Shown here one piece after another: positions 397 to 57,691 of a stretch of DNA of 64,000 nucleotides. The notes under the pieces were generated by a model. It did no database searches, was not told where the DNA came from, and saw nothing but the letters and a program-made list of their open reading frames with translations. Both the position numbers and the translations under genes were made by a program. Source of the DNA: Chrysomallon squamiferum (lineage: Eukaryota; Animalia; Mollusca). Position 1 is the first letter of the stretch; every line of letters starts with the position of its first letter. The stretch lies in NCBI GenBank assembly GCA_012295275.1, contig CM022675.1, positions 4,526,001 to 4,590,000 of the forward strand. The letters are read 5' to 3'.

Positions 397-5265
<4,869 letters not shown>

Positions 5266-7383: not shown

Positions 7384-7418
<35 letters not shown>

Positions 7419-8131: not shown

Positions 8132-8180
<49 letters not shown>

Positions 8181-9049: not shown

Positions 9050-9127
<78 letters not shown>

Positions 9128-9612: not shown

Positions 9613-9702
<90 letters not shown>

Positions 9703-12714: not shown

Positions 12715-12763
<49 letters not shown>

Positions 12764-14648: not shown

Positions 14649-14713
<65 letters not shown>

Positions 14714-14721
14714 TGATGATG

Positions 14722-14758
<37 letters not shown>

Positions 14759-15011
14759 GTGGTATGAGACACTGTTAAGATGGATTTAAAAAAAACAGTT
14801 AATAGCAGACGACAAATTTTGTATCAAAATATCTATCGAGTTACTACTGACATTCTTTTCAGTAAGAATTTTCCAGAACAAAATAAAAATGTCCACTGTC
14901 TTGAGAAACGTTGTCGTTGTTGTCCGAATCGTCGTGGACGTTATCGGATATTTCTGATTTCCTAGTAGGAATTTGATTGTTAGAAGAGGCAGTATCTCTA
15001 TACAGACTGGG

Positions 15012-17024
15012 CTATGGTAAATCGGAAGTAACGGTATCAGCGATGTCGTAGAGGTCGCTGTCAGGTTGGTTAAGATGGTTATACAGTTCTGATGTTGTTG
15101 TTGATGTTGGAGATTTCCTGTCCATGCTGTCGTAGTCTTCAGAATCAACGAGGTGGCTATAGATATCAGATACAGTTGCAGTTGTCTTTTCTTTGTTTGT
15201 GATGTCGTAGTCGCTGTCATTGTGAACACCAAGCCGGTTGTAGACATCAGACGTAGTTGTTTTCTTTTTCTTATCACAGGTATCGTAGTCACCGTCGTTT
15301 TCCCCAGCAAGGTTGTTGTAGATGTTAGATGTACGAGTTGTTGTATTTGTTGTGTCTGTGTTGTTGTAGTCTCCGTCATGGCTACCTGAAAGGTGTTTGT
15401 CCACTTCAGATGTTGTAGTAGCTGCCGTGTTGATATCCGCTATGTCGTAGTCTCCAGTAGATCTGTTATTGGGAAGTGCTTTAACATCTGCGATGTCGTA
15501 GTCGTTATCATTTCTGTTTTCCATGTTGACTGTAACTCCGCTTGGGACGTTGTAGTAAACACTGTGGTTTCCTTGATTTTCTGATTCAAATTCATAATCT
15601 GCCGACGTCGACGTCGTTGTTACCTCATAACTCGGATTTGTGAGACTAGGTTGTAAATGTAAACCAGAGCTGGTTTCATTGTTTCTTTTGTTAAAATTAA
15701 TTCTTGATTCTGGTAACTTCTGAGTTTTAAAACAAAATCTACGTGTTCTGAAAAATGAAGATATTATTTAAATTTAAACTGTGAAATACTAAATTAGTTT
15801 TATTATACGAGTTTCTGTCGTGACGACTCTGATAATTCAAAGGAAAAACTATTTTACATTTCAAATTAAACTGACGTTTAAGTGAGAAGCATAACAGTGA
15901 AATATATAGATGCTTTTTTCTTTTAATTTGTTTCATACCTTTTATTTTCGTTCATACTTTCTTGTTCTTTCAAACCTCTTTCTTTTTTATTCTTACCTCT
16001 TTCTTTTTTATTTTTTTTTTCAAACCTCTTTCTTTTTTATTCTTTCTTTTTTCTTAGTATTTTTAACAAACATAATAAAGACCACATTGTTTTTTCTTTC
16101 TTTTTCATTCATTCATTATTTTTGTTGGGGTATTTTTTTCTGTTTTTCTGCTTCATGAATTTCATAATTTGGTTTACTAAATAGTTATAAGAAATTCCTA
16201 CCGTTTAGACCAAAGTACGACGATAACAGTGACTACCAACACAACTACAACAGCAGCGACGCCACCACCAACAGATGCTGAAAATAGTTAACATTGATTT
16301 TAATCTAAGAACAATTAACTATGTCAATGTTTTTTATTGATCTGTCTGTTTGTTTGTTATTATTTATTTCCCTTACTACTGAAATAATTTTATTAATTTT
16401 AATACAAATATAAGTCATTACAAATCCCTTTTTTCAAATTACATTGTATTAAATAAATTACTGACAGTATTAAAATAAAATGAATCTGATAAATTAAAAA
16501 CAAATAATTGAAAATCATACTGAAAATATATTTAATTAATTTTAATAAGGTTAGCAGAATAAATCTAGTAAATTAACACAAAGCTAGTAAAATAGGGTTT
16601 AAACAAAGCTAATAAATGAATACTTATCATAAAATTAATAAATTAATTTTTTTGAATTAAGCTGTAAAAAAATCTTGAGATAAAAACTAATAAATTAAAT
16701 CTAATAAACTGAAGCAAATAAATAAATAAATATAAACTAGTAAAATATATCTAGTAAATTAAATATACTCAGATAAATAGTAAAATTAAAACTAACCTGA
16801 CTTGTTTGATGAATGTTGTGTCTCAGTGGATTGGTTAGTTGGAATTATCTCCCTTGATTTTGTTGGTTCAGAAATAGTAGAAAAAGACGGATTGGAGAAA
16901 AGTATGAAAGTTGATAATTTTTTTTTTTTCTAACTTTATTATTATTATTATTATTTTATTATTATTATTATTATTATTATTTATAGACAGATCATTCTGC
17001 AATTGATGTATCTGTTATTTTATG

Positions 17025-17105: not shown

Positions 17106-17512
17106 ATAGACACAACAAACAATAACCTTTTAAGAGTTTCCTTTCGTATTTTATCCTGTTACAAACTGAAATATATACACACATACACACATACATACAT
17201 ACATACAACAGTCCACATAGTTTTATTTGTTGTTATACAGGTTATACTCACACTTCTGACAAATTGTCTGAAATTTAGTCTGTGGAGAGTAATAATTATA
17301 TAATTCCTCATCTGCACTATTAACGAGCCAAACCAGACTTTTAAGAAACTCCGTTTTACCAGAAACTAGTTTCTTGTACGACACTTCGCTACCTGAAATG
17401 AAATACGTTTCTGTTTAGAGATTAATTGATATGAAGTAATAAATCTATAGAAAAAACCCACATTTGTGATGTTGAACTACTAATTAATTAAAGAAGAAAA
17501 ACATCAAGGACA

Positions 17513-17551: not shown

Positions 17552-18619
17552 TAAATAAGAAAATCATATTGAAACTTACCATCAATCCATCTCCATTCAA
17601 CTTCTCTGTGAAGTCCAAGCCAATAGTGTCGCTGTTGTCTTTCTGACGTAGTCAGATATTTTTTCATTGCTGAGACTGTATTACTGGTTAGTTTAGACAG
17701 ACGTCTACTGAATATCATATTACTCGTCCATTTTGTAAAGCATATCTTTGCAAAGGTAGAACCAGTTATATTTTCTATATTTTCCTTAAAAGCAAAAAAA
17801 AAAAAAGTAACTGATGACAAAAATACAACTAGTAATACTGATTCTTTTACAATAATCGCGACCACTACTACTACTACTACTGCTACTACTGATGCTAATA
17901 CTGCTACTGCTACTACTACTACTACTACTACAGGTAGTAGTGATACTACTTGAAATTAATTTTAAAAATGACCTGGACACAGAAGATGTGCTCTGTAGCT
18001 GTCACAGTTTTGGAAACCAATTTTAAAACTGTAAGAATTGAACTTGACGTAGCCGCAGCGCTTGATTCCGTCAGCGCTGTCGTCGATTGTAACTGAAGAC
18101 GGAAGATCTATAAAAAGAATAATTCACACATTATTATATCTGTGAATATATCTCGGTGACCATAATCATCATAACTGAAAAAAGAAAATAATGGTTTGCC
18201 CGGCAGCCATCTTTAAACTTTGATTCATTCATTGATTGTTTCATTCTTTTGTTCATCTGCTTTTTCATTCGATCATTCAAAATCTCAGACATACATCTTC
18301 ATCTACTGACGTTAATAAAATAATATAAAATAGATCAATATTTTAAAAATTGTTAAAGTTATTTGTGTCACTTGTTCTATAAATAGAAATTGTGTTTCGT
18401 CCTCCGCAGTATTCTTCATATGTCCCTGCACATCGAACTCGTTTTGTAGTTGACTTCACAGGACTTGCTGTGTCAGAGAGTTTACAGTAACACCGCTTTC
18501 CCTACAAAACACGAAATAAATAACAATAATAACACAAATACACAAAAAATAACCTAGAAAAATGTGTTAATAAAGCTATAATTGTTGTAGTAATGTGAAC
18601 ACAATAACAACAACAACAA

Positions 18620-18706
<87 letters not shown>

Positions 18707-20279
18707 GAAGAAGAAGAAGAAGAAGAAGAAGAAGAAGAAGAAAGATTGTGGTAGTAGTAGTGGTAGAAGTGGTAATAGTAGTAAAAGATGAAGTAGTGGT
18801 ATTGGTTGCCGCAGTGACAGTTTAATAGTAGAAGTATACCTGTCTGTGTGTCCCATTGGTCTGTGTGTGATTCAGGTAACATCAAACAAGTATATATTTA
18901 ACACTTTTTGTTTTAAATTCAGTGTTTATGAAGAGAAGAATTTACCAACCTGTAAACCAATTTCTCCATTGCTCGGGTTGCATTGCTGGAAGCATTTAAA
19001 AGGATCATTGTCTTGTATTTCGTAGTTAGACCTCGAACTCTCTACATCGATATTTCCAACGTACTGGAATAATTTGTCATTCGTCTCTGAAAACAACAAC
19101 AACAATAAAAAAAGCAAAATTAGTGATTTTGTTCTTATTGTTGATGTCGTAGATAATGAACAATTTATAAAGTAAAACTTTAATAAAACATTAAACATTT
19201 GTTTCTTTTCTAAATGAAATCGAAATTATCAATAACAGAATACTCACCAGTCCATTTCCACGGTGTAAACGTCTCAAAAGCTCCTACCCAATAATCTGTG
19301 TCTTCTTCCATTACAGAAAAAAGTTTGTTTTTGTCTAAACCAGAATGATCAACAACGAGTCTGCCTCCTGCCTCCTCACAGCCAGAATACGCTGCCTCCC
19401 ACCAAGTTTGTTTTTTATCCAGTGTAAAATATTCTTCTAACATTTCTTCTTGTTTTCTGTCAGACCACGGACCTGTGTTAATTTATTAATATTTATCTTA
19501 ATTATTTATTTGCATTTTGTTGATGAAATTTTATGTTACGTTCTTATATATACATTTATATATACGTATTTTGTTTATATTGTATAAATTTACACATACA
19601 TATTTATACTGTTATGTTTTATAAATTTATTAATAATTACTTAGTTATGCTCTTTTGCGTTTTAGTAAATACTGCTACGTTATTATTATTGTTATGTTAT
19701 TTTATATATAATATTGCTGTTATTTATATTTAACTAGGTCAAAATACGTTAGCTAATGTTGCATTTATAGTAAATAGTTTATTTTTTAAAGATGTTATAA
19801 CGTGCTAGTATATGTGTTATGTTAAATCCTATTACATACTGTTGTTACGCTATGCTGTTATTTAATTTTCATCGCTGTCATTATTGCTGTTTGTTGTCGT
19901 CGTTATTATTGGTGTTGATGATATTGTTACTGTTATTATTATTAGTGTCGTTGATGTTGTTATTGTTATTATTAATTATGGATGAACATTTCATGTTAAA
20001 CATCGATTAAACATTCAGAAGGCTCTATTTTGAGAAAGGTCTTCTTTTAACATAATCATCATATACAAGAAATCACAATAATAAAATCCCCGTTAAACAG
20101 TAAATAAAACTGAAATAAAATATAAAATTTTAAGTTATCTGCCCTAGCCTTATACATATTTCAAATGAAGTACAATGAATAAATTAATTTAAATAAATAA
20201 TAAACTTACTTAGTCTTTCTGCACCTGGAACCTGATTGTAGATGGTTAATGTAATCACTGCTGTTATTAAATTCATCAT
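15012..20279 (-). CDS. CTLD/WSC tyrosine-motif type I transmembrane receptor, copy 3
   Basis: Phase-consistent exons: 20210-20279 signal peptide (MMNLITAVITLTIYNQVPGAERL); 19248-19472 CTLD1-N (TWWEAAYSGCEEAGGRLV...YWVGA...PWKWT); 18950-19086 and 18372-18501 WSC; 17973-18107 CTLD1-C (RCGYVKF...GFQNCDSYRAHLLCP); 17580-17774 and 17252-17392 CTLD2; damaged stalk ~16797-16929; TM 16202-16277; tail 15012-15747. Open (~614 aa) if the symmetric stalk exon is skipped. Confidence 0.75.
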
Positions 20280-24006: not shown

Positions 24007-26778
24007 TTAACAGGATTTCAAAAACCACTTCATAGCAAACGACACATTTTGTATCAAAATATCGATCGTGTTACTGCTGACATTCTTTTCTATCTGACTT
24101 TTCCAGAACAAAATAAAAAGTCCACTGCCTTCAGAAACGTTGTCGTTGTTGTCGGAATTGTCGTGGACGTTATCAGAGATTTCTGATTTCCTAATGGGAA
24201 TTTGATTGTTAGACGAGGCAGTATCACTACACAGACTGGGGTGTGGTAAATCGGAAGTAACGGTATCAGCGATGTCGTAGAGGTTGATGTCAGGTTGGTT
24301 AAGATGGTTATACAGTTCTGATGTTGTTGTTGATGTTGGAGGTTTCCTCTCCATGGTGTCGTAGTCTTCAGAATCAACGAGGTGGCTGTAGACGTCAGAT
24401 ACAGTTGCAGTTGTCTTTTCTTTGCTTGTGCTGTCGTAGTCGCTGTCATTGTCAACACCAAGTCGGTTGTAGACATGAGACGTTGTTGTTTTATTTTTCT
24501 TATCACAGGTATCGTAGTCGCCGTTGTCGTCCCCAACAATGTGGTTGTAGATGTTAGATGTACGAGTTGTTGTGTTTGTTGTATCTGCGTTGTTGCTGTC
24601 GTCGTCATGGATGACTGACAGATGACTATCCACTTCAGATGTTGTAGTAGTTGCCGTGTTGATATCCACTGTGTCGTAATCGCCATTTTTGATGTCAGCA
24701 GAAGTTTTTTCCGGAACTGCTTTAACATCTGCGATGTCGTAGTCGTTATCATTTCTGTTTTCCATGTTGATAGTAACTCCGTTTGGGACGTTGTAGTAAA
24801 CACTGTGGTTTCCTTGATTTTCTGATTCAAATTCATAATCTGCCGACGTCGATGTCGTTGTTATCTCATAACTCGGATTTATGTGACCACGTTGTAAATC
24901 TTCAGCAGAGCTGATTTCATTGTTTCTTTTGTTAAAATTAATTCTTGATTCTGGTAACTTTTGAGTTTTAAAACAAAATCGACGTGTTCTGAAAAATGAA
25001 GACATTATTTAAATTTAAACTGTGAAATACTAAATTTGTTTTATTATATGAGTTTTTGTCGTGACGACTCTGATAATTCAAAGGAAAAACTATTTTACAT
25101 TTAAATTAAACTGACTTTAACTAAGAAGAATAAAAGTGAAATGTGTAGATTTTTTTTACTTTCTTTCATATGTTTGTATATAAATGTATTATTTTCATTC
25201 ATACTTTCTTGTTCTTTCATACCTTTTTCTTTCTCTTTCTTTTATTCTTTCGTGTCTTCCTATCTTTCATTCACACCTTTTTTTCTTTTATTCTTTCTTT
25301 TTTCTTAGTATTTTTAACAAACATAATAAAGAACAGATTGTTTTTTCTTTCTTTTTCATTCATTCATTCTTTTTTCCTTCTCTATTATTCATTCATATTT
25401 CATTCTTTATTTGTTTCAAATTTTCTGTTTTTCTGCTTCATAAATTTCATAATTTGGTTTACTAAAATTAATTCTTGATTCTGGTAACTTTTGAGTTTTA
25501 AAACAAAATCGACGTGTTCTGAAAAATGAAGACATTATTTAAATTTAAACTGTGAAATACTAAATTAGTTTTATTATACGAGTTTCTGTCGTGACGACTC
25601 TGATAATTCAAAGGAAAAATTATTTTACATTTCAAATTAAACTGACGTTAACTGAGAAGAATAACAGTGAAATATGTATATATATCTTTTTTACTTTCAT
25701 TCATATTTTTTCTATCGATAACTTTCGTTCATGTTTTTATTTCACCATGTTTTTATTTTGTTTTAGCATAAGAACACATAATTTTGTCTTTCTTTTTCAT
25801 TCATTCATTCTTTTTTCCTTCTCTAGTTTTTTCTTTGATATTTCATACTTTAATTTTATGTAATGACTGATTACAACAAATTCTCACCGTCTAGACCAAA
25901 CTACGACGAAAACAATGACGACCAAAACCAGTACAACAGCAGCGACACCACCAACATATGCTGAAAATAATTACATAATAACATTGATTTTAATCTAAGA
26001 ACAATTATCTATGTAAATATTTGTATGCATGTATGTATGTATCTATATATTGTATTATTATTATATTTTTCACTTATTATTAAAATAATTTTACTAATTT
26101 TAACACAGATATGACGCATTATTTGCCCTATTTTCAATTTATATTATATAAAACATATTATTAAAAATATAAAAATTAAATAATCTGCTAAGTTAAAAAA
26201 TAAAAGAACACTAACAATGAAAATATATTTAATTAATTTCAATAAGATTTGCAGAATAAATCTAGTAAATTAATACAAGCTAGTAAAATAAAGTTAGTAA
26301 ATTAAAAAATAGTAACATAATTCTTGTAAATTAAATAAGCCATCTAACACACAGAAACTGGGTATAAAAATAAAAATAAATAAACTTAATTAATTTAAAC
26401 AAATCTAGTAAATGAATACTAGTCATAAAATTAATAAAATAAATTTAGTGAATTAAAAGTAGTAAATAGATCTAGTAAATTAAATCTAACAAAATAAAAC
26501 AAGTAAATAAATATATAAATAAAAATAAAAACTAATAAAATGTATTTAGTAAATTAAATTTAGTCAAATAAATCTGTTAAGTTAACAAAATAGTAAAATT
26601 AAAACTGACCTGACTTGTTTGATGGATGTTGTGTCTCACCGGATTCTTTTGTTGGAATTATCTCCCCTGATGTCGATGTTGCTTGTGTAGTTAAATTATC
26701 TGTAAATATAAAAAAGATTTTCTCTAGAAGATATTAGATTTTTTTTCAATATAAAACTAATTGTAAGTCATCTTTTAA

Positions 26779-26839
<61 letters not shown>

Positions 26840-27484
26840 GTTTTAGAATATAGACAGCTTATTCTGAAATAGAAATGTCTTTTATTGTATGCAATTTATA
26901 ACACATACCTATATAGATACATAAAAAACATCTGCACAAATGCTCTCTCTCTCTCTGTGTCTGTGTGTGTGAGTGTGTGTGTGTGTGTGTGTGTATGTTA
27001 TGTGTATGTGAATTCACAGAATTACAAACTATAATATCCATGATAAAGGCATTTTACTTTTGAATTACATTTTACCCTTAACATAACATGTAAATTATAC
27101 GTATACAAAAAACTTTTGATGTTTTATTTGTGTCTCTATACTCACACTTCTGACAAATAGTCTGAAGTTTTGTCTGTGGAGGATAATAATCATAATCATC
27201 ACTATCAACGGACCAAACCAAACTTTTAAGTAACTTCGTATTGTCAGAAATCTGTTTCGAGTACGACACTTCTTTACCTGAAAAATAAAAAAAAATATAA
27301 AAAAATTAAAATAATAAAAATAATAAAATAAATGAATAGAATAAAACAAAGCTTGAATATGTGTGAATGTGTGTACGTGTGTGTATGTGTGTATGTAGAC
27401 AGATAAATAGATAAATAGACCAGATAGATATATAAAAACATATAAGTATGTAAATGAAATAAAATGTATTAAAATTTCAAAAAT

Positions 27485-27516
<32 letters not shown>

Positions 27517-28099
27517 TAAAATAAATAAATGAATAAATAAATAAATAAATTAATTAATAAATACGTAATTATTTCTTAGGACACTAAAGAAAAATGTACC
27601 GTTAATCCACCTCCATTTAACTTCTCTGTGAAGTGCAATCCAGTATGATCGCTTCTGTCTTTCTGGTTTTGTTAAAAGTTCTTTCATAGCTGAGAGTGTG
27701 TTGTTCGTTAGCTTAAGAAAATTTTCATAATTTTTCTTCCATGTCATGTCCTTTAGTGAAATACATGTCTCAGATATACAGTCTGACCAGTTAAACAACC
27801 ATTCAAACAATGATGTTATTACATCGTTCTCTGTTAGAAACAGGACAAATTAATATATATATGTATGTGTATGTGTATACATATATATATATATACACAA
27901 CAGAGAGTGTATTATTCGTTAGCTTAGGAAAATTTTCATAGTTTTTCTTCCATGTGATATCAGTTAGAGAAATACATGTCTCAGATTTGCAAACTGACAA
28001 GTGGAGCAGCCATGTAAGAAACAGTTTTAGTGCTTTCGTCTCCAAATGAAATAGGAAAAATAAATAAATAAATAAATTTAAAAAATAAATAAATACAAA

Positions 28100-28146
<47 letters not shown>

Positions 28147-30786
28147 ACAAAAAGTCAAAATATAAATAGAAACAAAAACAAAAAAATACAAAGAAATAAA
28201 AAAAAAAAAAAACCAAAATAAAAATAGAAATAAAAATAAAAATAAAATAAAATAAAATAAAATAAAATAAAGTAAATAAATAAATAAATAAAAAACAATA
28301 AAGCAGACATATTTTGTTTGTAACAACTACTACTACATCTACTTTAACTTCTGATACGACTAATTTACCTTTTATTATTATTAATTAATTAATTAATTAA
28401 TTTATGTATTTATTTATTTATTTATTGATATAGTCATTGTAACTAAAAATACTGACTGAACAATGTTAAAATAAAATGATCTGTATAAGCTGCGTATGCT
28501 TTGTAGCTGTCACAGTTTTGGAAACCAATTGTAAAATTGTCAGAATTGAGCTTGACGTAGCCGCAGCGGTTGATTCCGTCAACGCTGTCGTCGATTTGAA
28601 CTGAAGACGGAAAATCTGTAATGAAGTAATTTATATATTATTATAATTATCACTACATGAGTGCATACTCAATCTTCATTCGTTAATTCATTCATTCGTT
28701 CTTTCATTCATTCATTGGTTCATTCATTTATTTATATATTCGTTTGTTCATTCATTCAAAATCACAAACTTATACCTTCATCTACTTATGTTAATAAAAT
28801 ACTACAAAATAGATAAATATTTTATAAATTATGTTAAAGTTGGTAATTTCACCTGTTCTATAAATAGAAACTGTGTTTCTTCCTCCGCAGTATTCTTCAT
28901 ATGTCCCTGCACATCGAACTCGTTTTGTAGTTGACTTCACAGGACTTGCTGTGTCAGAGATTTTACAGTAACACTGCTTTCCCTAAAAAACACAAAATTA
29001 ATAACAATAATAACAAAAAATAACCTAGAAAAATATGCTAATAAATTTATAGTTGTAGTAATATGAACACAACAACAACAACAACAACAACAACAATAAT
29101 AATAATAATAATAATAATAACAATAATAATAATAATAATAATAATAAAAATAACAATAATAATAAGAAGAAGAAGGATATTTGTAGTAGTAGTGGTAGAA
29201 GTGGTAATAGTAGTAGTAGATGAAGTAGTGGTGTTGGTTGCCGCAGTGACAGTTTAATAGTAGAAGTATACCTGTCTGTGTGTCCCATTTGTCTGTGTGT
29301 GATTCAGGTAACCTAAAACAAGTATATATTTAACACTTTTTGTTTTAAATTCAGACTTTATCAACAGAAGCATTTACCAACCTGTAAACCAATTTTTCCA
29401 TTGCTCGGTTTACATTGCTGGAAGCATTTAAAAGCATCATTGTCTTGTATTTCGTAGTTAGACCTCGAACTCTCTACATCGATATCTCCAACGTACTGGA
29501 ATAATGTTTCATTGGTCTCTGAAAACAAAATCTAGAGCAATAACAACACACAAAAAAATGAAACAGTCTATTTATTGAATCATTTATTGTATTATGATTC
29601 TTATTAGTGGTTTTGTTCTTACTTTTGATGTCGTAGATAATGATCAATTTATAAAGTAAAACTTTGATAAAACTTTAAACATTTATTTATGTTCTAACCG
29701 ACATTTAAATTATTGATAACTGAATACCTACCAGTCCACATCCACGGTGTATACGTCTCAAAAGCTCCTACCCAATAGCTTTTGTTTTCTACCATTACAG
29801 AAAGAAATTTGTTTTTGTCTAAATCAGAATGATGAACAACGAGTCTGCCTCCTGCCTCCTCACAGCCAGAATACGCTGCCTCCCACCAAGTTTGGTTTTT
29901 ATCCAGTGTAAAATATTCTTCTAACATTTCTTCTTGTTTTCTGTCAGACCACGGACCTGTGTTAATTTATTAATAATTATCTTAATCTTAATTATATTTA
30001 TCTTGATGAAATTTTATGTTACGTTTTTATATATACATTTATGCAAATGTATTTTGTTTCTACTGAATACATTTATACATATTTATACTGTTATGTTTTA
30101 TAAACTTATAAATAATTACTTAGTTAGGTGATGATATACAATATTCTAATATGTAATATTTCTTCGTTATTATTATTGTTATGTTACGTTATTTTATGTT
30201 ATTGTATATATACTATTGCTGTTATTTAAAGTTAGCTACGTCAAAATACGTGAGCTAATTTTCCATTTATAGTAAACAGTTTATTTTGAAAATATGTCAT
30301 AACGTGCTACTTTATGCTGTTATGTTAAATCCTGTTGCGTACTGTTGTTACGCTATACAGTTATTTAATTTTCATCACACTCATTATTGTTGTTTGTTGT
30401 CGTCGTTATTAGTGTTGTTGTTGATGTTGTTACTGTTATGATTGTTGCTGTCGTTCATCTAGTTATTGTTGTTTTTTGTTGTTGTTATTAGTATTATTAA
30501 CTATGATACAAGCATTTCATGTTAAACATCCATTAAACATCCAGCAGGCTGTATTTTGAAAAAGGTCTGCTTTTAACATAATCATCATATACAAGAAAGC
30601 TCAATTAATAAAATTTAAATAATTTCAAACATTTTAAATTGTCTCCTTCAGCTTTATACATACTTCAAATGACTTGAAGTGCAACGAATAAATTAATTTT
30701 AAATAAATAATAAACTTACCTAGCCTTTCTGCACCTGTAACCTGATTGTAGATCGTAAATATAATCACTGCTGTTACTAAATTCAT
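24007..30786 (-). CDS. CTLD/WSC tyrosine-motif type I transmembrane receptor, copy 4 (longest tail)
   Basis: Exons 30720-30786; 29732-29956; 29382-29518; 28853-28982; 28481-28615 (donor mutated GT>AT, in-phase alternative GTCAGT donor gives end 28457); 27600-27830; 27146-27277; stalk 26610-26699; TM 25888-25960 (YVGGVAAVVLVLVVIVFVVVWSRR); tail 24007-24988. About 740 aa. Confidence 0.8.
25416..25680 (-). other. Duplicated tail-exon acceptor giving a possible short alternative terminal exon (25416-25518)
   Basis: 25465-25680 duplicates ~24935-25150. The frame from the duplicated acceptor reads TRRFCFKTQKLPESRINFSKPNYEIYEAEKQKI-stop. Confidence 0.65.
27900..28050 (-). other. Partial intronic duplicate of the CTLD2-N exon
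   Basis: Encodes CKSETCISLTDITWKKNYENFPKLTNNTLS, paralogous to CISETCISLKDMTWKKNYENFLKLTNNTLS at 27690-27785. It is truncated into an (AT)n tract. Confidence 0.75.
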
Positions 30787-32387
30787 TATTTCTTTTGGTT
30801 TTCTTGTGTTTACTTTTATATACGAACATTCTTATGCAAGACTATATAAAACCGAGTTTTGCTAAAACCAACAAGGAAGTAGATACTAATAAACAGAGGA
30901 AAAGAGGTCACGAATCTGGCTACTTAGAATGCATTGTTTGTATATTTGTGGTCGTATAATAATTATAAGTGATGCATTCGTGATATGGATTATTTCAACG
31001 TCTTTCTTGTACATACATAGATTATACATGAATACGTACATACATACATACATACATACATACATACACATGATACATACAACCTATACAAATACATAAA
31101 TTCTTGTGTTCACACATACATACGTACATACATACATACATACATATAAATGTACACGCATTATATAATGGATACAGATATAAATACACACATGTATCTA
31201 TCCATACAAGTACATGCATGCAAATAAATAGATACATACTTGAATATATACACATCTAGACACACCAGAAACAAACATACAAAATATAAATACATTCATT
31301 TTCACACACACATGTCCAGCTAATTTTCAGGATGACCACGTAAGATTACAAAGAGAACAGACAATATTAGATTATAAACCAGTGTCTACTTCAGTTCTTT
31401 GCAAAGCTGATAAATACGAGAAATTTTGAATATTTCTGGTTTTAAAGATATAGCAAGTGTTTTATTTCTATTAAAAAAGAAGAAGATAACTTTGACCTAT
31501 CACAGTTGTTTAAAAACAAATGTAGTAATACATTTGTAAATTTGGTTGCTTATAAAAATATTATTTTATCAACTAAAATTCAATGTTTCAAAATTTGTGC
31601 AATATAAATAATGGAAAGCAGTTGTTTTGTTACAGAATGATTTTGAAACATAAAAATCTGGGTGGGGTATTACCTGGGACAGAGATTACACAAGTAGTAT
31701 ATCTCAGTTTTATAACACTCAGTCATACAGAGAATGTTAATACTAATTAAAGAGACAGATATAATGAATTTAGATCATCTTCACAGTTGGCTACTTTGTA
31801 CGTTTAATGTAGTTAATGTATTTTTAAAATTCTTTGCCGTACAGGTAAATAAAAATAATCTTTGTCTGCAGATAAATTCTTTAAATTGATTCAGTTTAAA
31901 ATTCTGCTTGTCTGTTCTGTGATTTTCATTTGAAGATTGTTTATAACAAAATAAAGTCGCTTGTATTGTTTATGTTTATTGACGACAGTCACTCTACAAA
32001 CAACAGAAATATTTGTTTCACTTTGTTAAACAACAAACCAGGTAGTAATAAGATAAGAACCTGTTTTGTCACATTTTGTACTCACCACGTTTTATTACTA
32101 AATTTATGATAAGTAATATATTGCAAAATCTCACTAGAAACTTGTCATTAGAATTAAAACTGATGCTCTAAAATTAGTCTTAAAATAGCGCAGATCGAGA
32201 AATATCGGAGAATAAACACACACAGAGTTACTTAATATGGTTGTCACCAACGTCATAATAATATCTCCTGTGTGTTAATGTCACATTTTATCTTTCTTGT
32301 TCTTTCTTTGTACCTCCCACTGGTTTTAATATCAAAAATACATTGTTATTGTTATCATCATGATCATCATCTACATCGTCATTTTCA

Positions 32388-34429: not shown

Positions 34430-36627
34430 TCAGGTAGCTGTCCTCTTTTTGCTTGTGCTGTCGTAGGCGCTGTCATTGTCGAAACCAAGCTGGCTGTAGA
34501 CATACGACGTGGTTGTTACCGTTTCCTTATCGTAGGGTTCATAGTCACCGTTGTCGTCCCCAGCAAGGTTGTTGTAGATGTTAGATGTTCGAGTTGTCGT
34601 ATTTGTTGTGTCTATGTTGTTGGAGTCTCCGTCAAGGCTGCCTGAGAGATGATTCTCCACTTCAGACGTTGTAGTAGTAGCTGTCTTGATATCCGCTGTG
34701 TCGTAGTCTCCAGTAGATGTGTTAACGGGAAGTGCTTTAACGTCTGCGATGTCGTAGTAGTTATCGTTTCTGTTTTCCACGTTGACAGTAACTCCGTTTG
34801 GGACGTTGTAGTAAACACTGTGGTTTCCTTGATTTTCTGATTCAAATTCATAATCTGCCGACGTCGATGTCGTTGTTACCTCATAACTCGGATTTGCGTG
34901 ACCACGTTGTAAATCTTCAGCAGAGCTGATTTCATTGTTTCTTTTATTAAAATTAATTCTTGTCTCTGGTAACTTCTTAGTTTTAAAACAAAATCGACGT
35001 GTTCTGAAAAATGAAGATATTATTTAAATTTAAACTAATACTAAGTTAGTTTTATTATACGAGTTTCTGTCGTGACGACTCTGATAATTCAAAGGAAAAA
35101 CTATTTTACATTTCAAATTAAACTAAAGATTAAGTGAGAAAAATAACAGTGAAATATATAGATTATTTTATTACTTTCGTTCATATCCTATTATATCTTT
35201 TACTTTTATACCTTTCTTTCATTCATTCATATCCTTCTCATTCTTTCATCCCTTTTTCTTTCTCTTTCTTTTGTCTTAGCATTTCTAACAAACATGATAA
35301 ACAACACAACATTTTTCTTTCTTTTTCATTCATTAATTCTTTTTTCCTTCTCAATGTTTTCTTTCATATTTGAGCCTATTCTTTTTTCTGTTTTTTTCTT
35401 CTTCGAGAATTTCATAATTTTATTTAATGATTGATTACAACAAATTCTCACCGTCTAGACCAAACTACAACGGCAGCAATGACCAACACCACTAAAATAA
35501 CAGCAGTGACGCCACCACCAACATATGCTGAAAATAATTATACAATAACAGTACAAATGTTTTTATGTATGCATATATGTATATTTTTATTTATTTATGT
35601 ATTTATTTATGTATTTATTTATGTATTTATTTATTTATTTACTTATTTATTTCTTTATTTCTTTATATTTTTCACTTAATTTTGAAATAATATTAATTTT
35701 GACACAAATATAACGCTTTATAATGACCCCTTTTCCTAATAAAATTATATCAAACAAATTACAAAAAATATTTATAAACAATAATATATTAAGTTAAAAA
35801 ATTTAAAAAACTAAAAATTAAAAAAAGAATATTAAAAAGAATACTATTAATGAAAATATATTTAATTAATTTGAATAAGGTTAGCAGAATAATCCTAGTA
35901 AATTGACAAATAGCTAGTATAATAAACTTAGTAAATTAAAAACGAATAAAATAATTGTTGCAAATTAAATAAACCATTAAGCACAGACAAACTGGGTAGA
36001 AAAATATAAATAAATAATCTTAATTAATTTAAACAAATCTAGTAAATGAAATTTAGTCACAAACTTAATAAAATAAATTTAGGGGAAAAAAGTAGTAATT
36101 ATAGCTAGTAAATTAAAAGTAGGAAATAACTTGGTAAAAGTTGTACATAAATTTAGTAATAAAAACTACTAACTTAAATCCAATAAACTAAAACAGTTAA
36201 ATATTGTTTAAAATAAATAAATAAATAAATAAATAAATAAAAACTAATAAAATATATCTAGTAAATTAAATGTAGTCAAATAAAATTAGTTGAAACTCTT
36301 AAAACAAAATAGTAAAATTAAAACTAACCTGACTTTTTTGATGGATGTTGTGTCTCAGTGGATTGTTTCCTTGGAATTACCTCCCCTGATGTTGTTGGTT
36401 CAGAAGCAGAAGAAAAAGTCGGATTGGAGAAAAGTTTGTAAGTTGACAATTTTGACGTAGCTGCTGCTGTTGTTTTGGGGGACAGTTTTGCAGGCGTTGT
36501 CACTGATGTGGACGTTGCTACTGGTTTAGTAACATTATCTGTAAATGTATAAAAAAGATTGTCTCTAGAAGACATTTTTTTTTGTATCAAAGACTTTGTA
36601 TGTCATCTTTTAACTTTATTATTATTT

Positions 36628-36662
<35 letters not shown>

Positions 36663-39600
36663 GTTACTATTTCACATATATACATACATACACACACATA
36701 CCTGTATACGTACATATAGTTAGCTATATATACATAAATATGTACATAGAAACATACATTCATACCTAGATATATATATATATATATTTGTCTGTGATTA
36801 TATTTAATTAATAAACAAATCGACTTTTTAACAATTTGTTTTACTGTGTTGTTTTATACTTACATTTCTGACAAATAGCTGGATTTGTTTGGTCTGATTT
36901 GTAATTGTAATATAATTTGTTATTTTCAGTAAACCATACCATCCTTTTAAGATCAACTCCTGAAACTGGTTTCTGAAACGATACCACACTACCTGCAAGA
37001 TTTAAAACAAGTATTTTAGAATTTTGTTTTACACAGAGGAAGAACTAACAACAAATACTGAATATCTATTCTATGTCGCTTTCAGCACCAAAAAGACCAG
37101 TTAAATAAAATGAACAACAACAATAACAAAAATATTATCGAAGTCTGTGCGCACATTCACACAAACACACACACACACGCACACACACACACAGAGACAC
37201 TCACACAATATAACTAACACACAAAGACCCAAACACATACTTCCACACAAACACAACACAAGATGTATACAGATTTCTGACTGCAATTTACCATCAATCC
37301 ACAGCAGTTTGACATCTCTGTGGAGTCCAATCCAGTAGTAAAGATTTGTTTGTAGCAGATTCTGCAGTGATGACACTGTACTGCTGCTTATTTTTAAACA
37401 TGTCAAACTGTCTGCTTGCATAGTTCCATGACATCCTCCGTTGTGAAATACAAGTTTCAGAATCACAGTAGTATTCTAAAAAGAGATAATCAATATGATG
37501 TTATAATGAACGAATATTTCATTTTATTTCATTTTTGATATTACATCGTTCTTCATTGATAATAATAACAACAACAACAACAACAACAACAACAATAATA
37601 ATAATAATAATAATAATTATAATTATAATAATAAATATAATAAATATAATAATAATAATAGCAATCATCATCATCATCTTATTATTTATTTATTAGATAT
37701 TTGAACTTTGTTAAAACTATTACCTGTATAAAGTGTATATGCTCTGTAGCTGTCACAGTTTTGAAAACCAATTGTAAAATTGTCAGAATTGAACTTGACG
37801 TAGCCGCAGCGCTTGATTCCGTCAGCGCTGTCGTCGATTGTAACTGAAGACGGAAGATATGTAATGAAGTGATTTATATATTATTGTAATTTTCACTGCA
37901 TCTGTGCATTCATTCGTTCATTCATTCATTCGTTTGTTCATACAATCACACATTTGTTTCTTTTACTGATGTTAGTAAAATAATATAAAAAGATAAATAT
38001 TTTAAAAATTGTTAACGTTATTAGTGTCACCTGTTCTATAAACAGAAATTGTGTTTCGTCCTCCGCAGAATTCTTCATATGTCCCTGCACATCGAACTCG
38101 TTTTGTAGTTGACTTCACAGGACTTGCTGTGTCAGAGATTTTACAGTAACACTGCTTTCCCTACAAAACACAAAATTAATAACAATAATAATAAAAAGAA
38201 GAAGAAGGATAATGGTAGTAGTAATGGTAGAAGTGGCAATAGTAGTAGAAGAAGATGATGATGAAGTGGTTGCCGCAGTGACAGTTTAATAGTAGAAGTA
38301 TACCTGTCTGTGTGTCCCTTTTGTATGTGTGTGTTTCAGGTAATCTAAAACAAGTTTATATTTAACACTTTTTGTTTTTAATTCAGTCTTTATGAAGAGA
38401 AGAATTTATTAACCTGTAAACCAATTTTTCCATTGCTTGGTTTGCATTGCTGGAGGCATTTAAAAGCATCATTGTCTTGTATTGAATATTTACTACTCAA
38501 ACTCCCAACATCGATATCTCCAACGTACTGGAATAATTTGTCTTTGGTCTCTGAAAACAGCAATAACAACAATCGATAATAAAATAATACAAAAAAATTA
38601 TAATAAAAAAATTGAATAAAAAAAATAAATAAATCAATCAATCAAATATTATTTAGTTACTACCCATGTTTGTACGGTTTGTGTCTGCAGTGTACAGACT
38701 GGCGAAGTAATTAAATACTCTTCCATGTTCTGACCTTCAGGCAGCATCAGCGCCGCAATAATGACGTTGTTAACTTAAGACAGTAGAATTAGTGATGTAT
38801 TTGAGAGGTGTCGTCGAGAAGACGTACAGCGATGGATGAATATTTGAAAAATGAAGACTCCGAACTGGATCCTGAACAAAATTCTAAGAAAGTTAAAAAG
38901 TAAAGTGGGTGGTGGTCAAGAGAAAGCAAACTCGCTGAGCTTCAAGAAAAAAAGTGAAAGTTATCTTTCGTTTCGATTTACTTTTATTGGGATTCTGGTG
39001 CACTGACTCTATTATGCTTGGGGAAAAATCTTAACACGTGACATGGTCAAAACAAGCTTAAACACCATCTCCAAACAAAACATTCGTCATCTTCAAAGCA
39101 ACAACACAGACTATTTTTCTTTGTATGCGATAAAATACGTAGGAACAGGAAGTTTTTATGAGAAAAACTACAACGGTGTCTGTGAGAGCTCTCAAAGCTA
39201 TTTACTTAGTAGATGAACTTGTTTGCCAAATTTGAAAAAGTCGCAAACTACCTGGCAGAGACAATAAAATTGCAACTTGATGAGTCTTCTGATATCAGTG
39301 GACATGTTCAACTCCTGGCCAAAGTGTGTTTCCTGTTTTGATATCAAGGCAACGCCACGAGAAACAACAGGAGAGGAAATGTTTCTTTGTCACATCAGAA
39401 TATCTTGAACAAGGAGGATTCAGCTGGAAAATTGAGCGAGAATCTGCACTGGAGGAAAAGCTACCACTAAAACATTATTTATTTTCTAAATTGAGATTAA
39501 AAATAAATTATACTCACCAGTCCACATCCACGGTGTAAACGTCTCAAAAGCTCCTACCCAATAGTTTGTGTCTTTTTCCATTACAGAAAAAAGTTTGTTT

Positions 39601-40481
39601 TTGTCTAAATCAGAATGATCAACAACGAGTCTGCCTCCTGCCTCCTCACAGCCAGAATACGCTGCCTCCCACCAAGTTTGTTTTTTATCCAGTGTAAAAT
39701 ATTCTTCTAACATTTCTTCTTGTTTTCTGTCAGACCACGGACCTGTGTTAATTTATTAATAATTATCTTAATTATTTATTTTAAAATATGTTGCAGAAAT
39801 TTATAAATATTAACTGTTTTAAGCTATACTCTGCTTGAGTCAAGATATGTCATATTGAAACATGTAATACTGCTGTGTTATTATTTTAGTTATGCTATGT
39901 TAGATAACAACTTATAATTAAGTTATGTTAGGCTATTTTAAGTAATTTTCCGTTTATAGTAAGGAGTGTATTTTTAAAAGATATTGTGTTAAAACCTGCT
40001 CTTTTATGGTATTATGTAATATTTTTACCTATTAAGACATGTTATCTGAAGTGGAAACTGTTTAAATTGTATTACCTTTTATTGTTAGGCTACGCAGTTA
40101 TTTTGATTTTCATCACTATCATTATTTTTGTTTGTGTTTTGCTGTTGTTCTTGTTATTATTAACTATGATACAAGCATTTCATGTTAAAACTCCATTAAA
40201 CATTCAGTAGACGCTATTTTGAAAATGGTCTGCTTCTGTACTTTGAAATATAATCAGCATATACAAGAAATAACAATTCTAAAATCCCTTTTAATCAACG
40301 AATAAAACTTAAATAAACTTTAAAATTTTAAGTTATGTCCCCCTCCCTTATACATATTTGAAAAGACTTGAAGTGTAACATACAGTTAATTTAAATAAAT
40401 AAATAAAAACTTACTTAGTCTTTCTGCACCTGTAACCTGATTGTAGATCGTTAATATAATCACTGCTGTTACTAAATTCAT
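34430..40481 (-). pseudogene. Receptor copy 5, complete exon set but frameshift in exon 6; short tail
   Basis: Exons 40415-40481; 39518-39742; 38414-38550; 38031-38160; 37724-37858 (acceptor CAG>CAT, in-phase alternative start 37843); 37292-37475 (184 nt, +1 frameshift near 37400); 36864-36992; stalk 36329-36538; TM 35452-35527; tail 34430-35003. It could be functional if the indel is an assembly error or exon 6 is skipped. Confidence 0.65.
38660..39480 (+). mobile_element. Degenerate hAT-superfamily (Buster/Charlie/ZBED-like) transposase remnant in intron 2 of copy 5
   Basis: Absent from paralogous introns. Fragments translate to KHHLQTKH (~39060), RALKAIYLVDEL (~39186) and LQLDESSDISGHVQLLA (~39271-39320), which match Buster-type hAT transposase motifs. 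Many frameshifts; TIRs not identified. Confidence 0.7.
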
Positions 40482-41142
40482 TATTTCTTTTTGTGTTCTT
40501 CTCTTTATTTTTATATCCGAAATTTCTTACGCAAAGCGATATAAAACCGAGTTTTGCTAAAACCATCAAGTTAGTAGATATTAATACACAGAGTAATCAA
40601 ACAAAACCCACGAGTCTGTTAGATATAGAATCCATCAACTGGAACCTTAGATATTAATACACAGATTAATCAGACAAAACCCACGAGTCTGTTAGACATA
40701 GAATCCATCAACTAGAACCATAGCCCAAACAGCTAGTCGCTTCACAATAACGCTTGATCAATGACTGGCTACTTAGATTACAGAATACATTGTTTCTAAC
40801 TTTGTGTCGTGTGATTAGAAATGATACGTCAGCTTTACTAATGTAGCTACTAGTACAATACAATGAATTACATACATACATACACACGTACATTCACAAA
40901 TACATGCATGCATGCATATACAGTTACATACATATATGTATATATACATACATCTAGACACATACTCATACAAACACACAAAATATAAATACAGTTTATT
41001 TCCACCAATTCACAACATATTTTCATATCCAGCTGTTCCCAGCTAATTTTCACATACATACCTATTCCCAGCTTATTTTCATGTAGACGTGTTCACGGCT
41101 TGTTTTCATGTATACGTATTACCAGCTAATGTTCAGGATGAC

Positions 41143-43650: not shown

Positions 43651-46600
43651 TTATTGCTGAGATTCTTTTCTATCTGAATTTTCCAGAACAAAATAAACAT
43701 TTCCATGGCCTTCTGGAACGTTGTCGTTGTTGTCGGAATCGTCGTGGACGTTATCAGAGATTTCTGATTTTCTAGTAGGAATTTGATTGTTAGACGAGGC
43801 AGGATGTCTACACAGACTGGGGTGTGGTAAATCCGAAGTAACAACATCAGCGATGTCGTAGAGGTCGCTGTCAGGTTGGTTAAGATGGTTATACAGTTCT
43901 GATGTTGTTGTTGCTGTTGGAGGTTTTCTGTCCATGGTGTCGTAGTCTTCAGAATCGACGAGGTGGTTGTAGACGTCGGATACAGTTGCAGTTGTCTTTT
44001 TTCTATTTGTGCTGTCGTAGTCGCTGTCATTATCAACACCAAGCCGGTTGTAGACATCAGACGTAGTTGATTTCTTTTTCTTATCACAGGTATCGTAGTC
44101 ACCGTCGTTGTCCTCCGCAAGGTTGTTGTAGATGTTAGATGTACCAGTTGTTGTATTTGTTGTGTCTGTGCTGTCGTAGTCTCCTTCACGACTGTTTGAG
44201 AGGCGTTTGTCCACTTCAGATGTCGTAGTAGTTGCCGTGTTGATATACGGTGTGTCGTTGTCTCCATCGTTGTCGTCAGCTGTAGATCTGTTAATGGGAA
44301 CTGCTTTAACATCTGCTTTAACGTCTGCGATGTCGTAGTCGTTATCATTTCTGTTTTCCACGTTGACAGTAACTCCATTTGGGACGTTGTAGTAAACACT
44401 GTGGTTTCCTTGATTTTCTGATTCAAATTCATAATCTGTCGACGTCGATGTCATTGTTACCTCANNNNNNNNNNNNNNNNNNNNNNNNNNNNNNNNNNNN
44501 NNNNNNNNNNNNNNNNNNNNNNNNNNNNNNNNNNNNNNNNNNNNNNNNNNNNNNNNNNNNNNNNNNNNNNNNNNNNNNNNNNNNNNNNNNNNNNNNNNNN
44601 NNNNNNNNNNNNNNNNNNNNNNNNNNNNNNNNNNNNNNNNNNNNNNNNNNNNNNNNNNNNNNNNCATAATTAATAAATAACGATTGGACATTTTCGCTAG
44701 TTTGAAGATGAAATATTAAATGATAAATAAATAAATATGTGTAATGTAACAACGACATCAACAACAGTAATATAATTATTATTCTTCCTCTTTTTGTTTA
44801 CTTTTTCATGAAATTTTTTTTATAAAACTTTAAAAAAAAAAAAAAAATTAATCTATAAATTAATTAATGAATAAGGAAGAAGAAAAAGGTGTACTTACAT
44901 TTTTGACAAACTGATTTCTTTTTTAAATTAGACTCTAAAATGTTTATATCAACTTTGAAACGGGGAGGGAGAGTTAGCCACTTCCAATCCTTTGTCCACG
45001 TCATGCTTTCTGTAAACTTTGCATCATTATAATGTTCATGTATTACTGAACCTGTTAGAAAACACAAATCAGTATCAGTGAAATGCACAATTATGTCTCC
45101 TACAAGTATAAAAGTACTGCTATTTCTTCCTTTACGGTCACCACCACTACTACTGCTACTGCTGCTGCTGCTACTATTATTACTGTTACTTCTACTTCCA
45201 CCATTACCACTACTACTACTACCATTACTACTGCTACTATTGCTAGTGGTGCTGCGGCAGCTATACTATAGGCAACTAAAGCGGCAATTTCCACAGTCTA
45301 TAAATAAAATGATGTATGACTTTTATTAACTGTACTTTGGTGATATGAAGAAATAGTCCAAACGTTTCAGCTTACTTCCTCGTTATGCTTTATTCGTTGT
45401 TTTTTTGTTTGTTTGTTGTTGTTTTTTTAAGTAAAGCAGCAAAATAACTCAATTAAAAATGTCTGGGAATGTCTTTTTTCTGTAGTCGTAAGATAATTGT
45501 AAAAAGAACGGCTCTGTTTTGAAGAGATAAAATGGCGATTTGAAATGTTTTTAAACTGTATAATATAATAAAATAAAGAACAAAATGAACATATATCTAG
45601 CTTAATATTTATATTTCATTTCTTTAATTATTTGTAACGCCACAGATATTCTTAAACTGCTGTGAGATAGTAAATTTATTAAAGATGATTTTCAGTTACC
45701 AGTACCATTAATCCATCGCCATTCAACCTGCCTCCGAAGTCCAACCCAGAAATCATCTTCACTGTAGTCACGTGACAAAAGTGTTGTCAATGACGACAGT
45801 GTCTCATTGGTTAGTTTGGATAGATTGCAATTAGCGTTTGAACTGACCCAGTCAGTTGGTTCATTTGAATCTGTTTCACTTAAGTCATTCCCTAAAATAA
45901 AATAAAAATAAGCAAATAAGCAAACGCACAATAAGAACAGAAACAATGATATATCAGCAGCAACGACAACAACGTAAAGTAATAAAAATAATAAGAAGAA
46001 AAATAACAATTACTATAGCTAGAACAAGAAAAACAACAACAACAACAACATCAAATAATAATAATAATAACAACAATAATGATGATGATGATACTGAAGA
46101 CGACAACAACAACAACAGAAGAGAAACAAAAACGGGAGCAAGCAGAAGAATGATTTATGTAATAGAAATTTTATTTATTTTCTTGTTTCCTTATTACCAC
46201 ATAATAATTTATATTTAAATAGTTTACCTGCACAAACACTGTATGGTGTTTCGTTTTCACAATTTTGAAATCCAAGTTTTAACATTTCTTTGTCATCGTC
46301 GTATTTGATGTAGCCACAGTTGGAGTCGCCGTAGACTTTGAGAATAATCTTCACTGAAGCTGGAACATCTTTGTGACAAAAATGTGCAGAAATTAACAAC
46401 TTTTATGTACATTTTAAGTGTTTATTTGTTTGTTTGTTTATTTATTCATTTGTGCACTTGTCAGTAACATTACTAAAATAATATACATGAACATTAGAAT
46501 ATTTATAAACTGAGCATTTAACGTGAAGGAAACATTTTATATTTAAACACAATTTATTAAATGAAGTTAACTATATTTTAAAAGATTACTTTCATTATTA

Positions 46601-46856
46601 TTCTTATTATTCTTATTCGTATTCTTCTTATTATTCTTCTTATTAATAAATGCAATTTAAAATTTCATTTCGACTCTTACCAATCTTGTACACAGAAATA
46701 AAGTTTTCTCCACCACAGAATTCTGTGTAGCTTCCTGCACACCTGACACAATCTTCTCTCTTACTTAGTCCACTGTCAGTAATTTTACAAAAACAACGTC
46801 TACCCTGAAAACAAAACAACTTTCTTGTTATTTCTTCTTGTAGATATTGTTATTGC

Positions 46857-46887
<31 letters not shown>

Positions 46888-48372: not shown

Positions 48373-48879
48373 TATTTCTTTTTGTTTTCTTCTCTTTATT
48401 TTTATTTACGAAACATCTTACGCAAGACGATATCAAACCGAGTTTTGCTAAAACCAACGAGGAAGATGTTATTAAGAGGAAGTAAAATAAAAACAGGTCG
48501 CGAGTCTCTTACAGATAGAACTGTCAACTAAACACTGACAGCTACCAGCCTCAAATGAGTCAGTAAGTGTGTCCTTAGGTCACAGAATTCATTGTTTGTA
48601 GTTTTCTGTTTGTACAATTATAAGCGATGCGTTGTTTTACTAATGTAATTGCATGAATTAATCTGAACAATAGCTTATTTTAGTAATACTATGTGAATGT
48701 ATTTATATGTCTCCGTCTTTTTATATACATACATTAATACATGTATGCATACATACAAAAATAGATACTTATATAGCGCATGCAAAAACAAATACATACA
48801 TTCACAGATACGTACGTACGTACGTACATACATACATACATGCTTAGATATACACGTCTAGACACACCACATACAAATA

Positions 48880-53039: not shown

Positions 53040-57691
<4,652 letters not shown>

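Follow-up and report, generated by a model that had tools for sequence, protein, structure and literature searches.

A C-type-lectin-like domain probably interrupted by a WSC-like module in a tandem gene family of the gastropod Chrysomallon squamiferum

WSC and C-type-lectin-like domains (CTLDs) occur together in polycystin-1 and in the polycystin-type REJ proteins of sea urchins, where they stand in series rather than nested. In molluscs, bivalve-specific CTL proteins, uncharacterised and with a putative immune role, list WSC among their domains (PMC10140915). That article places both domains in one protein and, in its accessible part, makes no statement that WSC lies inside the CTLD, nor does 'WSC' occur in the accessible text of its supplement; the comparison to our locus is one of domain content. 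The accessible part of a second article names WSC and CTLD in separate table rows only (PMC4581086). A literature search on CTLDs with an inserted or discontinuous WSC or PAN domain, which covered few subscription papers, found no paper describing such nesting, so that co-occurrence of the two domains is already known and nesting was not found in print. Here, we analyse a window of 64,000 nucleotides from Chrysomallon squamiferum (assembly GCA_012295275.1, contig CM022675.1, positions 4,526,001 to 4,590,000), AT-rich, microsatellite-rich DNA of animal type, and within it a minus-strand gene, g2, whose exons run from 20279 down to 15012 (Table 1). The same window holds paralogs g1 and g3–g6, and all copy counts below refer to it.

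We read the g2 product as a single-pass membrane protein whose first CTLD is interrupted after the WIGL motif by a two-exon WSC-like module, with exons 2 and 5 folding into one CTLD that would carry the module at its tip, and which would serve as a calcium-independent recognition receptor (probability roughly 0.55). Taken separately, a discontinuous CTLD around a WSC-like insert appears likely, and the assignment of exon 5 as its C-half is somewhat favoured. From N- to C-terminus, the product comprises a likely signal peptide, the split CTLD, a second, degenerate CTLD, a stalk, a transmembrane helix, and a tail with tyrosine repeats.

The gene family is genuine: its exon order, intron phases, and splicing were established, and it is conserved in no fewer than two lineages of gastropods. 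All g2 introns in use are GT-AG, exons 1–7 are open with intact splice sites, and the spliced frame stays open over 614 residues, from a hydrophobic leader through the ectodomain and a single transmembrane stretch to the 244-residue tail. Transcript evidence consists of assembled RNA contigs from four runs, all of one study. The 15 of 18 contig joints listed include exons 1/2, 3/4, 4/5 (found in all four runs), 6/7, 7/stalk, stalk/transmembrane, and transmembrane/tail; an exon 2-to-5 joint, which would mark skipping of exons 3–4 and a plain CTLD isoform, is not among these 15. Exons 3–6 of the family fall into two types, A and B, which are 50–68% alike in DNA and 36–58% in protein, and both are transcribed according to the RNA contigs. 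A single 624-nt type-A contig runs unbroken through exons 5, 4, 3, and 2; it shows 40 mismatches to g2 over 598 aligned bases and is therefore an allele or paralog of g2. A 760-nt contig joins exons 2, 3, 5, and 6 of divergent type-B copies, and one contig piece matches exon 2 of g2 with zero differences.

A HMMER search with exon 2 recovered 45 proteins, of which 37 were treated as ordinary multi-CTLD proteins and eight were close single-stretch matches. Three of these eight are full or near-full relatives from Gigantopelta aegis, and the other five are exon-2-sized fragments. In G. aegis, the products of LOC121385366 (XP_041371958.1), LOC121385519 (XP_041372159.1), and LOC121385671 (XP_041372371.1 and XP_041372373.1), annotated as uncharacterised, have a collinear CTLD N-half, WSC-like part, and three-cysteine segment. 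Ectodomain identity to g2 is 43% for relative P0002, 35% for P0008, and 33% for P0048 (an isoform of P0014). Two of the G. aegis proteins also share with g2 the second CTLD, stalk, transmembrane helix, and tyrosine-repeat tail; unlike g2, the G. aegis proteins retain all four cysteines of the second CTLD. The genes of these relatives are probably clustered. Homolog searches by word matching, an insensitive method, yielded nothing new with exon 2, the alignment of exon 4, or the ectodomain of P0008 as query, and two metagenome scans gave 124 and 75 pattern matches, none of which was confirmed as a relative.

An initial annotation, made from the letters of the window alone, had proposed a WSC domain nested in a CTLD, and its limits coincide to the base with exon boundaries on the minus strand, 19472 being where exon 2 begins and 17973 where exon 5 ends. 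The motifs that it quoted are all present, with one small slip: in the helix-1 motif, EA and C are separated by four residues, not three. Exon 2 matches Pfam Lectin_C over positions 3–57 of 107 (E 4.6e-4; 21.3 bits, cut-off 22.6), and the match stops at the W.W motif. It also matches CD69 among solved structures (E 0.0023), has an Atlas feature score of 0.94, and scores 42.0 bits on a profile built from 185 ordinary CTLD domains of 37 proteins (HHalign probability 97.9). The features of CTLD membership (beta1, two helices, and the WIGL strand) are all found in exon 2. Based on these matches, exon 2 is identified, as had been annotated, as the N-half only of a CTLD, cut off by the intron that follows the WIGL..W.W motif. 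CTLD genes are known to carry an intron downstream of WIGL (PMC514892), and the intron after W.W recurs between exons 6 and 7 of g2. In the Pfam scan, for which the input was 11 exon translations, exons 3, 5, 6, and 7 had no match. It had also been expected that standard hidden Markov model (HMM) scans would miss such a domain; they do not miss it wholly, since exon 2 of g2 is matched below the cut-off and the half-domain of P0002 passes that of Lectin_C (24.9 bits).

Canonical Ca2+-dependent C-type carbohydrate-recognition domains are defined by an EPN or QPD motif plus WND at Ca2+ site II (PMC7618208). In agreement with the initial annotation, none of these motifs was found in exons 2–7 of g2, which therefore lacks the defining sites, and the WND position reads LGF or IGF in the exon 5 family. 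Canonical Ca2+-dependent sugar binding is thus not expected, and the g2 protein, judged from its sequence, is not a canonical calcium lectin. In this respect it resembles CD69, CLEC2D, and dectin-1, Ca2+-independent CTLD receptors without EPN, QPD, or WND that gave the best sequence matches among solved proteins; they differ from g2 in their type II orientation, short tails, and single uninterrupted domain.

The WSC-like character of exons 3–4, also part of the earlier proposal, was borne out. Exon 4 matches Pfam WSC over positions 47–82 of 82 (E 0.011; 16.4 bits, cut-off 27.8) and, weakly, yeast Wsc1 (7PZ2; E 0.24), and the region of P0008 equivalent to exons 3–4 matches over 17–82 of 82 (E 0.0012). 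Whole-protein WSC scores are 19.4 bits for P0008 and 15.7 bits for P0014, both below the Pfam gathering score of 27.8, and P0002 has no WSC row in Pfam. Compared to the WSC domains of Wsc1 and Kremen1, the module shares the CxxxC, CxC, and C..CGG pattern and a type I membrane setting but has six cysteines instead of eight and remains below the Pfam cut-off; because of these two shortfalls we file exons 3–4 as WSC-like and not as WSC. In the alignments, the two cysteines missing from the module (Cys1 and Cys6) are those of the C27–C86 pair of Wsc1, which form one disulfide (PMC9024836), so that the pattern is as expected of a real, diverged WSC fold. The CGG motif and the CxxxC/CxC core, common to WSC and PAN, are present, CGG being found in all five full exon-4 copies, in P0002, and in P0008, with CGS in P0048. 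The low-confidence model of P0008 has a strand-helix-strand order compatible with a PAN/Apple fold, and PAN clusters occur among the Atlas feature matches with scores <0.9. In Wsc1, the sheet order beta1-beta5-beta3-beta4-beta2 places both ends of the domain side by side (PMC9024836), and since its first and last strands adjoin, a WSC module could loop out without breaking the host fold.

For exon 5, the resemblance to a CTLD C-half appears weak. A family profile of eight exon-5 sequences matched 154 ordinary C-halves with E 0.006 and three cysteines in register, and the same comparison gave an equally good E 0.007 for exon 7, whose status as a C-half is accepted, and poorer values for exon 3 (0.19) and exon 4 (0.10); the exon-5 and exon-7 family profiles had no mutual match (E 0.41). 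Four of the eight exon-5 sequences beat their own shuffles (p<0.05). Approximately 16 residues precede the first cysteine of exon 5, as in ordinary C-halves, which argues for an insertion at the start of the long loop; the earlier idea that a WSC module replaced the lectin loop goes too far. Likewise, phase-1 introns bound the WSC-like pair as described (phases are 1 before exon 2, 1 at 2/3, 0 at 3/4, 1 at 4/5, and 1 after exon 5), but since the six ectodomain introns other than 3/4 are all in phase 1, these flanks do not single out the pair. Against solved structures, exon 5 alone matched only an RNA recognition motif of EWS, which was judged irrelevant.

Structural models were obtained for the G. 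aegis relatives P0002 and P0008, using shallow alignments in both AlphaFold jobs. For the P0002 AlphaFold model, all of the 50 matches listed (of 70; Z≥2) are CTLD-fold proteins, with no WSC or PAN chain among these 50. Nearly all alignments cover 84–107 residues over about 45–275 and take in a single complete domain, helix 1 through last strand; the best listed match is E-selectin (Z 4.7, root-mean-square deviation 3.6 Å, 103 aligned residues). In an independent Atlas model of P0002 (predicted template modelling score 0.53), 9 of 10 structural rows come from Lectin_C clusters, with 118–192 residues aligned over spans such as 30–250 that skip about 100 residues, all below the tool's bar; 6 of 10 end at 250–256, just past the exon-5 terminal cysteine. 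Because P0002 has no intact second CTLD, both models contain a discontinuous CTLD. They disagree on its last strand, which is at the end of exon 5 in most Atlas rows and at an exon-7-like end in AlphaFold (the ranges give first and last residues only, and register is not visible in them). The folding check suggested for exons 2 and 5 thus returned, in the relatives, a whole discontinuous CTLD in two low-confidence models, with the last strand in dispute. The P0008 model shows strand-strand-strand in the exon-5 part; in VIA no match exceeded Z 3.8 and neither a CTLD nor a WSC chain was among the 50 matches listed, which says nothing either way because the ordinary second CTLD also fails there (predicted local distance difference test [pLDDT] <50). 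Foldseek found no match at E≤0.001 with either model. A further alignment, to which 14 ordinary CTLD proteins had been added, was set aside before folding because MAFFT put their C-halves over the WSC part. The nesting by exons 2 and 5 is supported by these models, not proven.

Several results weigh against the reading of exons 2 and 5 as one domain, or against the receptor built on it. Joined exons 2 and 5 score 41.5 bits on the 185-domain profile, compared to 42.0 bits for exon 2 alone, 449 of 500 shuffles of exon 5 scored as high as or higher than the real pair, and exon 2 joined to exon 7 scores higher (46.6 bits, a full-length HMM match). The joined-profile check that had been proposed therefore came out negative, and exon 5 as the missing C-half, compatible with the family profile and the cysteine register, remains an interpretation. 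In three relatives, the gain from exon 5 was +3.5, +3.1, and -2.1 bits, none significant, with shuffles equal or better in 34/300, 27/300, and 300/300 cases. Exon 5 of g2 itself does not differ significantly from its shuffles (p 0.24), and free-gap pairwise placement put ordinary C-halves on exon 5 in 4/58 and 16/58 cases, no more than in the shuffled control. The AlphaFold models have low pLDDT (48.2 for P0002, 39.2 for P0008), structural Z-scores are <5, and the P0002 CTLD match ends at 275, beyond exon 5, taking its last strand from a later segment. The exon-5 terminal cysteine is missing in g3 and g4, two of the five copies with exon 5, so that the bond between it and the helix-1 cysteine, predicted earlier, is not general. 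The pN/pS ratio (nonsynonymous to synonymous differences) among close paralogs is 0.75–1.85 (small, non-independent counts) and fits drift as well as diversifying selection. Finally, the function is deduced wholly from architecture, the 15 tail tyrosines, and clustering.

The weak resemblance of exon 5 and the loss of its terminal cysteine in two copies make a crossed pairing of exons 2 and 7 a live rival, albeit an unlikely one. Here, exons 2 and 7 would form an outer CTLD (Cys55–Cys342), and its long loop would hold both the WSC-like module and, as in a Russian doll, an inner CTLD in circularly permuted order, with exon 5 coming before exon 6. The exon-2 helix cysteine and the exon-7 terminal cysteine are present in every copy having those exons, and the lost cysteines (the exon-5 terminal one, and that of the exon-6 helix in g2, g3, and g4) are one from each sequential domain; crossed pairing leaves zero free cysteines in type A and sequential pairing leaves two. 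However, the losses represent one or two events in related type-A copies and are not independent tests, and homogenisation of exon 2 among copies is by itself enough to preserve its cysteine. All four CTLD cysteines (C1–C4, C2–C3) are present in g2, g1, g5, and three relatives, type-B copies retain both Cys1/Cys4 pairs, and P0008 and P0048 have all 16 ectodomain cysteines, an even set that would pair canonically if exons 2 and 5 form one CTLD and is compatible with either pairing. An RNA contig reads through the cysteine-less end of exon 5 (with a loose end at 17992) and g4-type transcripts exist, which favours the crossed arrangement; g3, on the other hand, may be dead, having lost the donor of exon 5. 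The CTLD in the AlphaFold model of P0002 is closed by the exon-7-like C-terminus (range end 275), and exons 2 and 7 gave the full-length HMM match, but most Atlas matches end at the end of exon 5. In addition, P0002 has no exon-6 equivalent and isoform P0014 no exon-7 equivalent, and we know of no native CTLD with a crossed, circularly permuted topology. As CTLD N- and C-termini adjoin (PMC7618208), a C-half followed by an N-half can close as a CTLD.

It is also doubtful, if conceivable, that no CTLD is reunited, and that exon 2 encodes a truncated half-domain packing on the WSC-like module or a partner chain, with exon 5 as a separate small disulfide hairpin whose terminal Cys-Pro would open the long-form N-terminus of the second CTLD and supply its first cysteine. 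This would agree with the uniformly negative joined scores, the low confidence of all models, a family-profile alignment in which C-x-E-S at the end of exon 5 falls on CPES at the N-terminus of CLEC2D, where the next CTLD starts, and the spacing of Cys231 and Cys244 in g2, which is that of a long-form hairpin. However, the second CTLD of the G. aegis relatives already has its own cysteine pair in exon 6, and type-B exon 6 offers no partner for the exon-5 terminal cysteine. The other two exon-5 cysteines are in CTLD register, a complete CTLD spanning the insert came out of both predictors, and a half CTLD would expose its tryptophan core (PMC7618208).

We consider it improbable that the architecture is ancestral and real while g2 and much of the array are decaying pseudogenes, with no g2 protein made. 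The g2 tail has an early stop (15012–15014) where the paralogs continue for about 50 codons, its stalk exon has no clear acceptor, lesions exist in g1, g3, g5, and g6, pN/pS is near 1, and identity to g2 was shown for none of the RNA contigs. On the other side stand the open exons 1–7 with their splice sites and the contig piece identical to exon 2. RNA contigs of relatives splice exon 7 to 16852 and 16797 to the transmembrane exon, demonstrating use of the stalk exon, and its phase 1-1 boundaries mean that it can be skipped in frame. The frameshift of g4, the lesion covered by reads, is an extra A in a homopolymer at 37392 that is missing from three of the four runs compared at this site (X1, X4, and X5, the last used for this indel only); it is therefore probably an assembly error, and other lesions of the array may be as well. 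In the RNA contigs of all four runs, a sense codon replaces the tail stop.

Returning to a CTLD reunited from exons 2 and 5, a phase 1-1 WSC cassette would have entered the post-WIGL intron before the split from the Gigantopelta lineage. Exons 2 and 5 are predicted to form the CTLD with Cys55–Cys231 and Cys205–Cys222 bonds, and the host domain may have lost its calcium site and become a scaffold. WSC domains elsewhere bind glucans or proteins (PMC9024836), for which reason the insert is the likely binding tip; ligand would be read by its surface together with neighbouring loops, with the second degenerate CTLD and the Ser/Thr stalk as a putative spacer. The tail has what we take to be one NPxY motif and an ITIM-like SVYYNV (immunoreceptor tyrosine-based inhibitory motif), which together with the DYD/YNxL repeats point to phosphotyrosine signalling: clustering could lead to phosphorylation of the 15-tyrosine tail and recruitment of SH2/PTB adaptors. 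The long loop of CTLDs is regarded as their freely evolving, ligand-binding part (PMC7618208), and at its start a whole folded domain appears to sit here. If so, invertebrate CTLDs can acquire new specificity by domain insertion, and half-domain Lectin_C matches, which surveys of lectins discard or treat as fragments, may represent complete receptors.

Table 1 Features of g2 and its paralogs in the window, with the basis of each assignment.
Feature	Position	Strand	Basis
Exon 1, likely signal peptide (23 aa), ends phase 1	20210..20279	-	Hydrophobicity reading; exon 1/2 joint in RNA contigs of 3 runs
Exon 2, CTLD N-half (beta1, helix 1 with Cys55, helix 2, WVGA = WIGL strand, W.W)	19248..19472	-	Pfam Lectin_C, CD69, and Atlas matches
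Exon 3, WSC-like N-part (first strand without WSC Cys1; CxxxC helix; GLQ)	18950..19086	-	Alignment; match of relative P0008
Exon 4, WSC-like C-part (CYC, C..C-G-G, last strand; without WSC Cys6)	18372..18501	-	Pfam WSC match
Exon 5, likely CTLD C-half (beta3-beta4-beta5; Cys205, Cys222, Cys231)	17973..18107	-	Profile match; three strands in model
Exon 6, N-half of second degenerate CTLD; same intron site after W.W; helix-1 Cys missing in g2	17580..17774	-	Exons 6+7, 28.6 bits
Exon 7, C-half of second CTLD, ends ICQK (Cys342, in every copy)	17252..17392	-	Exon 6/7 RNA joint
Ser/Thr stalk exon remnant, no clear acceptor in g2	16797..16893	-	RNA contigs of relatives
Transmembrane exon, ends phase 2	16202..16277	-	Gene model; RNA joints
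Cytoplasmic tail, 244 aa, 15 Tyr	15012..15747	-	NPSY, SVYYNV, repeated DYD and YNxL
Paralog g1 (type B); exon 1 and 5' part of exon 2 not found	400..5263	-	Sequence comparison
Paralog g3 (type A); exon 5 without terminal Cys and GT donor	24010..30789	-	Sequence comparison
Paralog g4 (type A); exon 5 without terminal Cys; 1-base exon 6 frameshift not in reads	34433..40484	-	Sequence; RNA reads
Paralog g5 (type B); in-frame exon 3 stop in assembly; type-B transcript seen	43654..48375	-	Sequence; RNA contig
Paralog g6, likely pseudogene; stop at exon 2 end, exon 4 fused to exon 6	53043..57694	-	Sequence

The array contains six copies of exon 2 and seven of the tail between 400 and 57700 of the window, all on the minus strand and spaced about 9–10 kb apart. 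Based on blastn matches, DNA identity is 87–99% among all copies for exons 1–2 and 76–87% for the tails, and the similarity of g5 and g2 breaks off just past the exon-2 donor. Because exons 1–2, like the tails, are homogenised and exons 3–6 are of two types, one N-half is combined with two very different inner cassettes. Tandem duplication and recombination may generate ectodomain diversity, much as in gene clusters for immunity or the recognition of symbionts. Under the unlikely crossed arrangement, paralogs would exchange the whole inner cassette, the WSC-like module with the permuted CTLD, by recombination just after exon 2, which would change specificity over a constant N-half and signalling tail. 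Type-B exon 4 (4387–4506 and 46685–46804, minus strand) has a seventh cysteine in the WSC region, close to where WSC Cys6 was lost. Exon 3 holds no partner for this cysteine, which could serve in a bond between chains.

Being clustered, variable, and transcribed, with relatives in a chemosymbiotic vent snail, the family is a candidate for microbe recognition, and by analogy we rate an immune or symbiont-recognition role as about an even prospect. Expansions of pattern-recognition genes have been described in G. aegis (PMC7895826; 'WSC' does not occur in the accessible text). The GRC genes of Biomphalaria (PMC4361660) and the LG11L gene (PMC13712769) provide further analogies, and analogies only, being clustered and encoding divergent proteins that cross the membrane once, with large domains on both sides of it. 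Unlike g2, GRC genes carry fibronectin III or chitinase-like domains (PMC4361660); the LG11L gene has PAN followed by C-lectin, a pairing of PAN fold and C-lectin (PMC13712769).

Other structures were observed along the array. In g6, a deletion (55658–55810, minus strand) has removed exon 5 and fused exon 4, after its 19th codon, in frame to the latter half of exon 6. An orphan, frameshifted tail exon lies at 8310–8900 on the minus strand with no ectodomain exons found upstream, and a fragment of the stalk/transmembrane side near 9935–10079 resembles g5. A repeated intergenic element flanks g2 in inverted orientation (12400–13700 and 21500–22900), with similar sequence near 33500, 41400, and 62500. 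The region 42465–43286, which has very high read depth in all four RNA runs, contains a broken open reading frame that we take to resemble the N-terminus of a Tigger/CENP-B-type transposase, and is probably a dispersed transposon.

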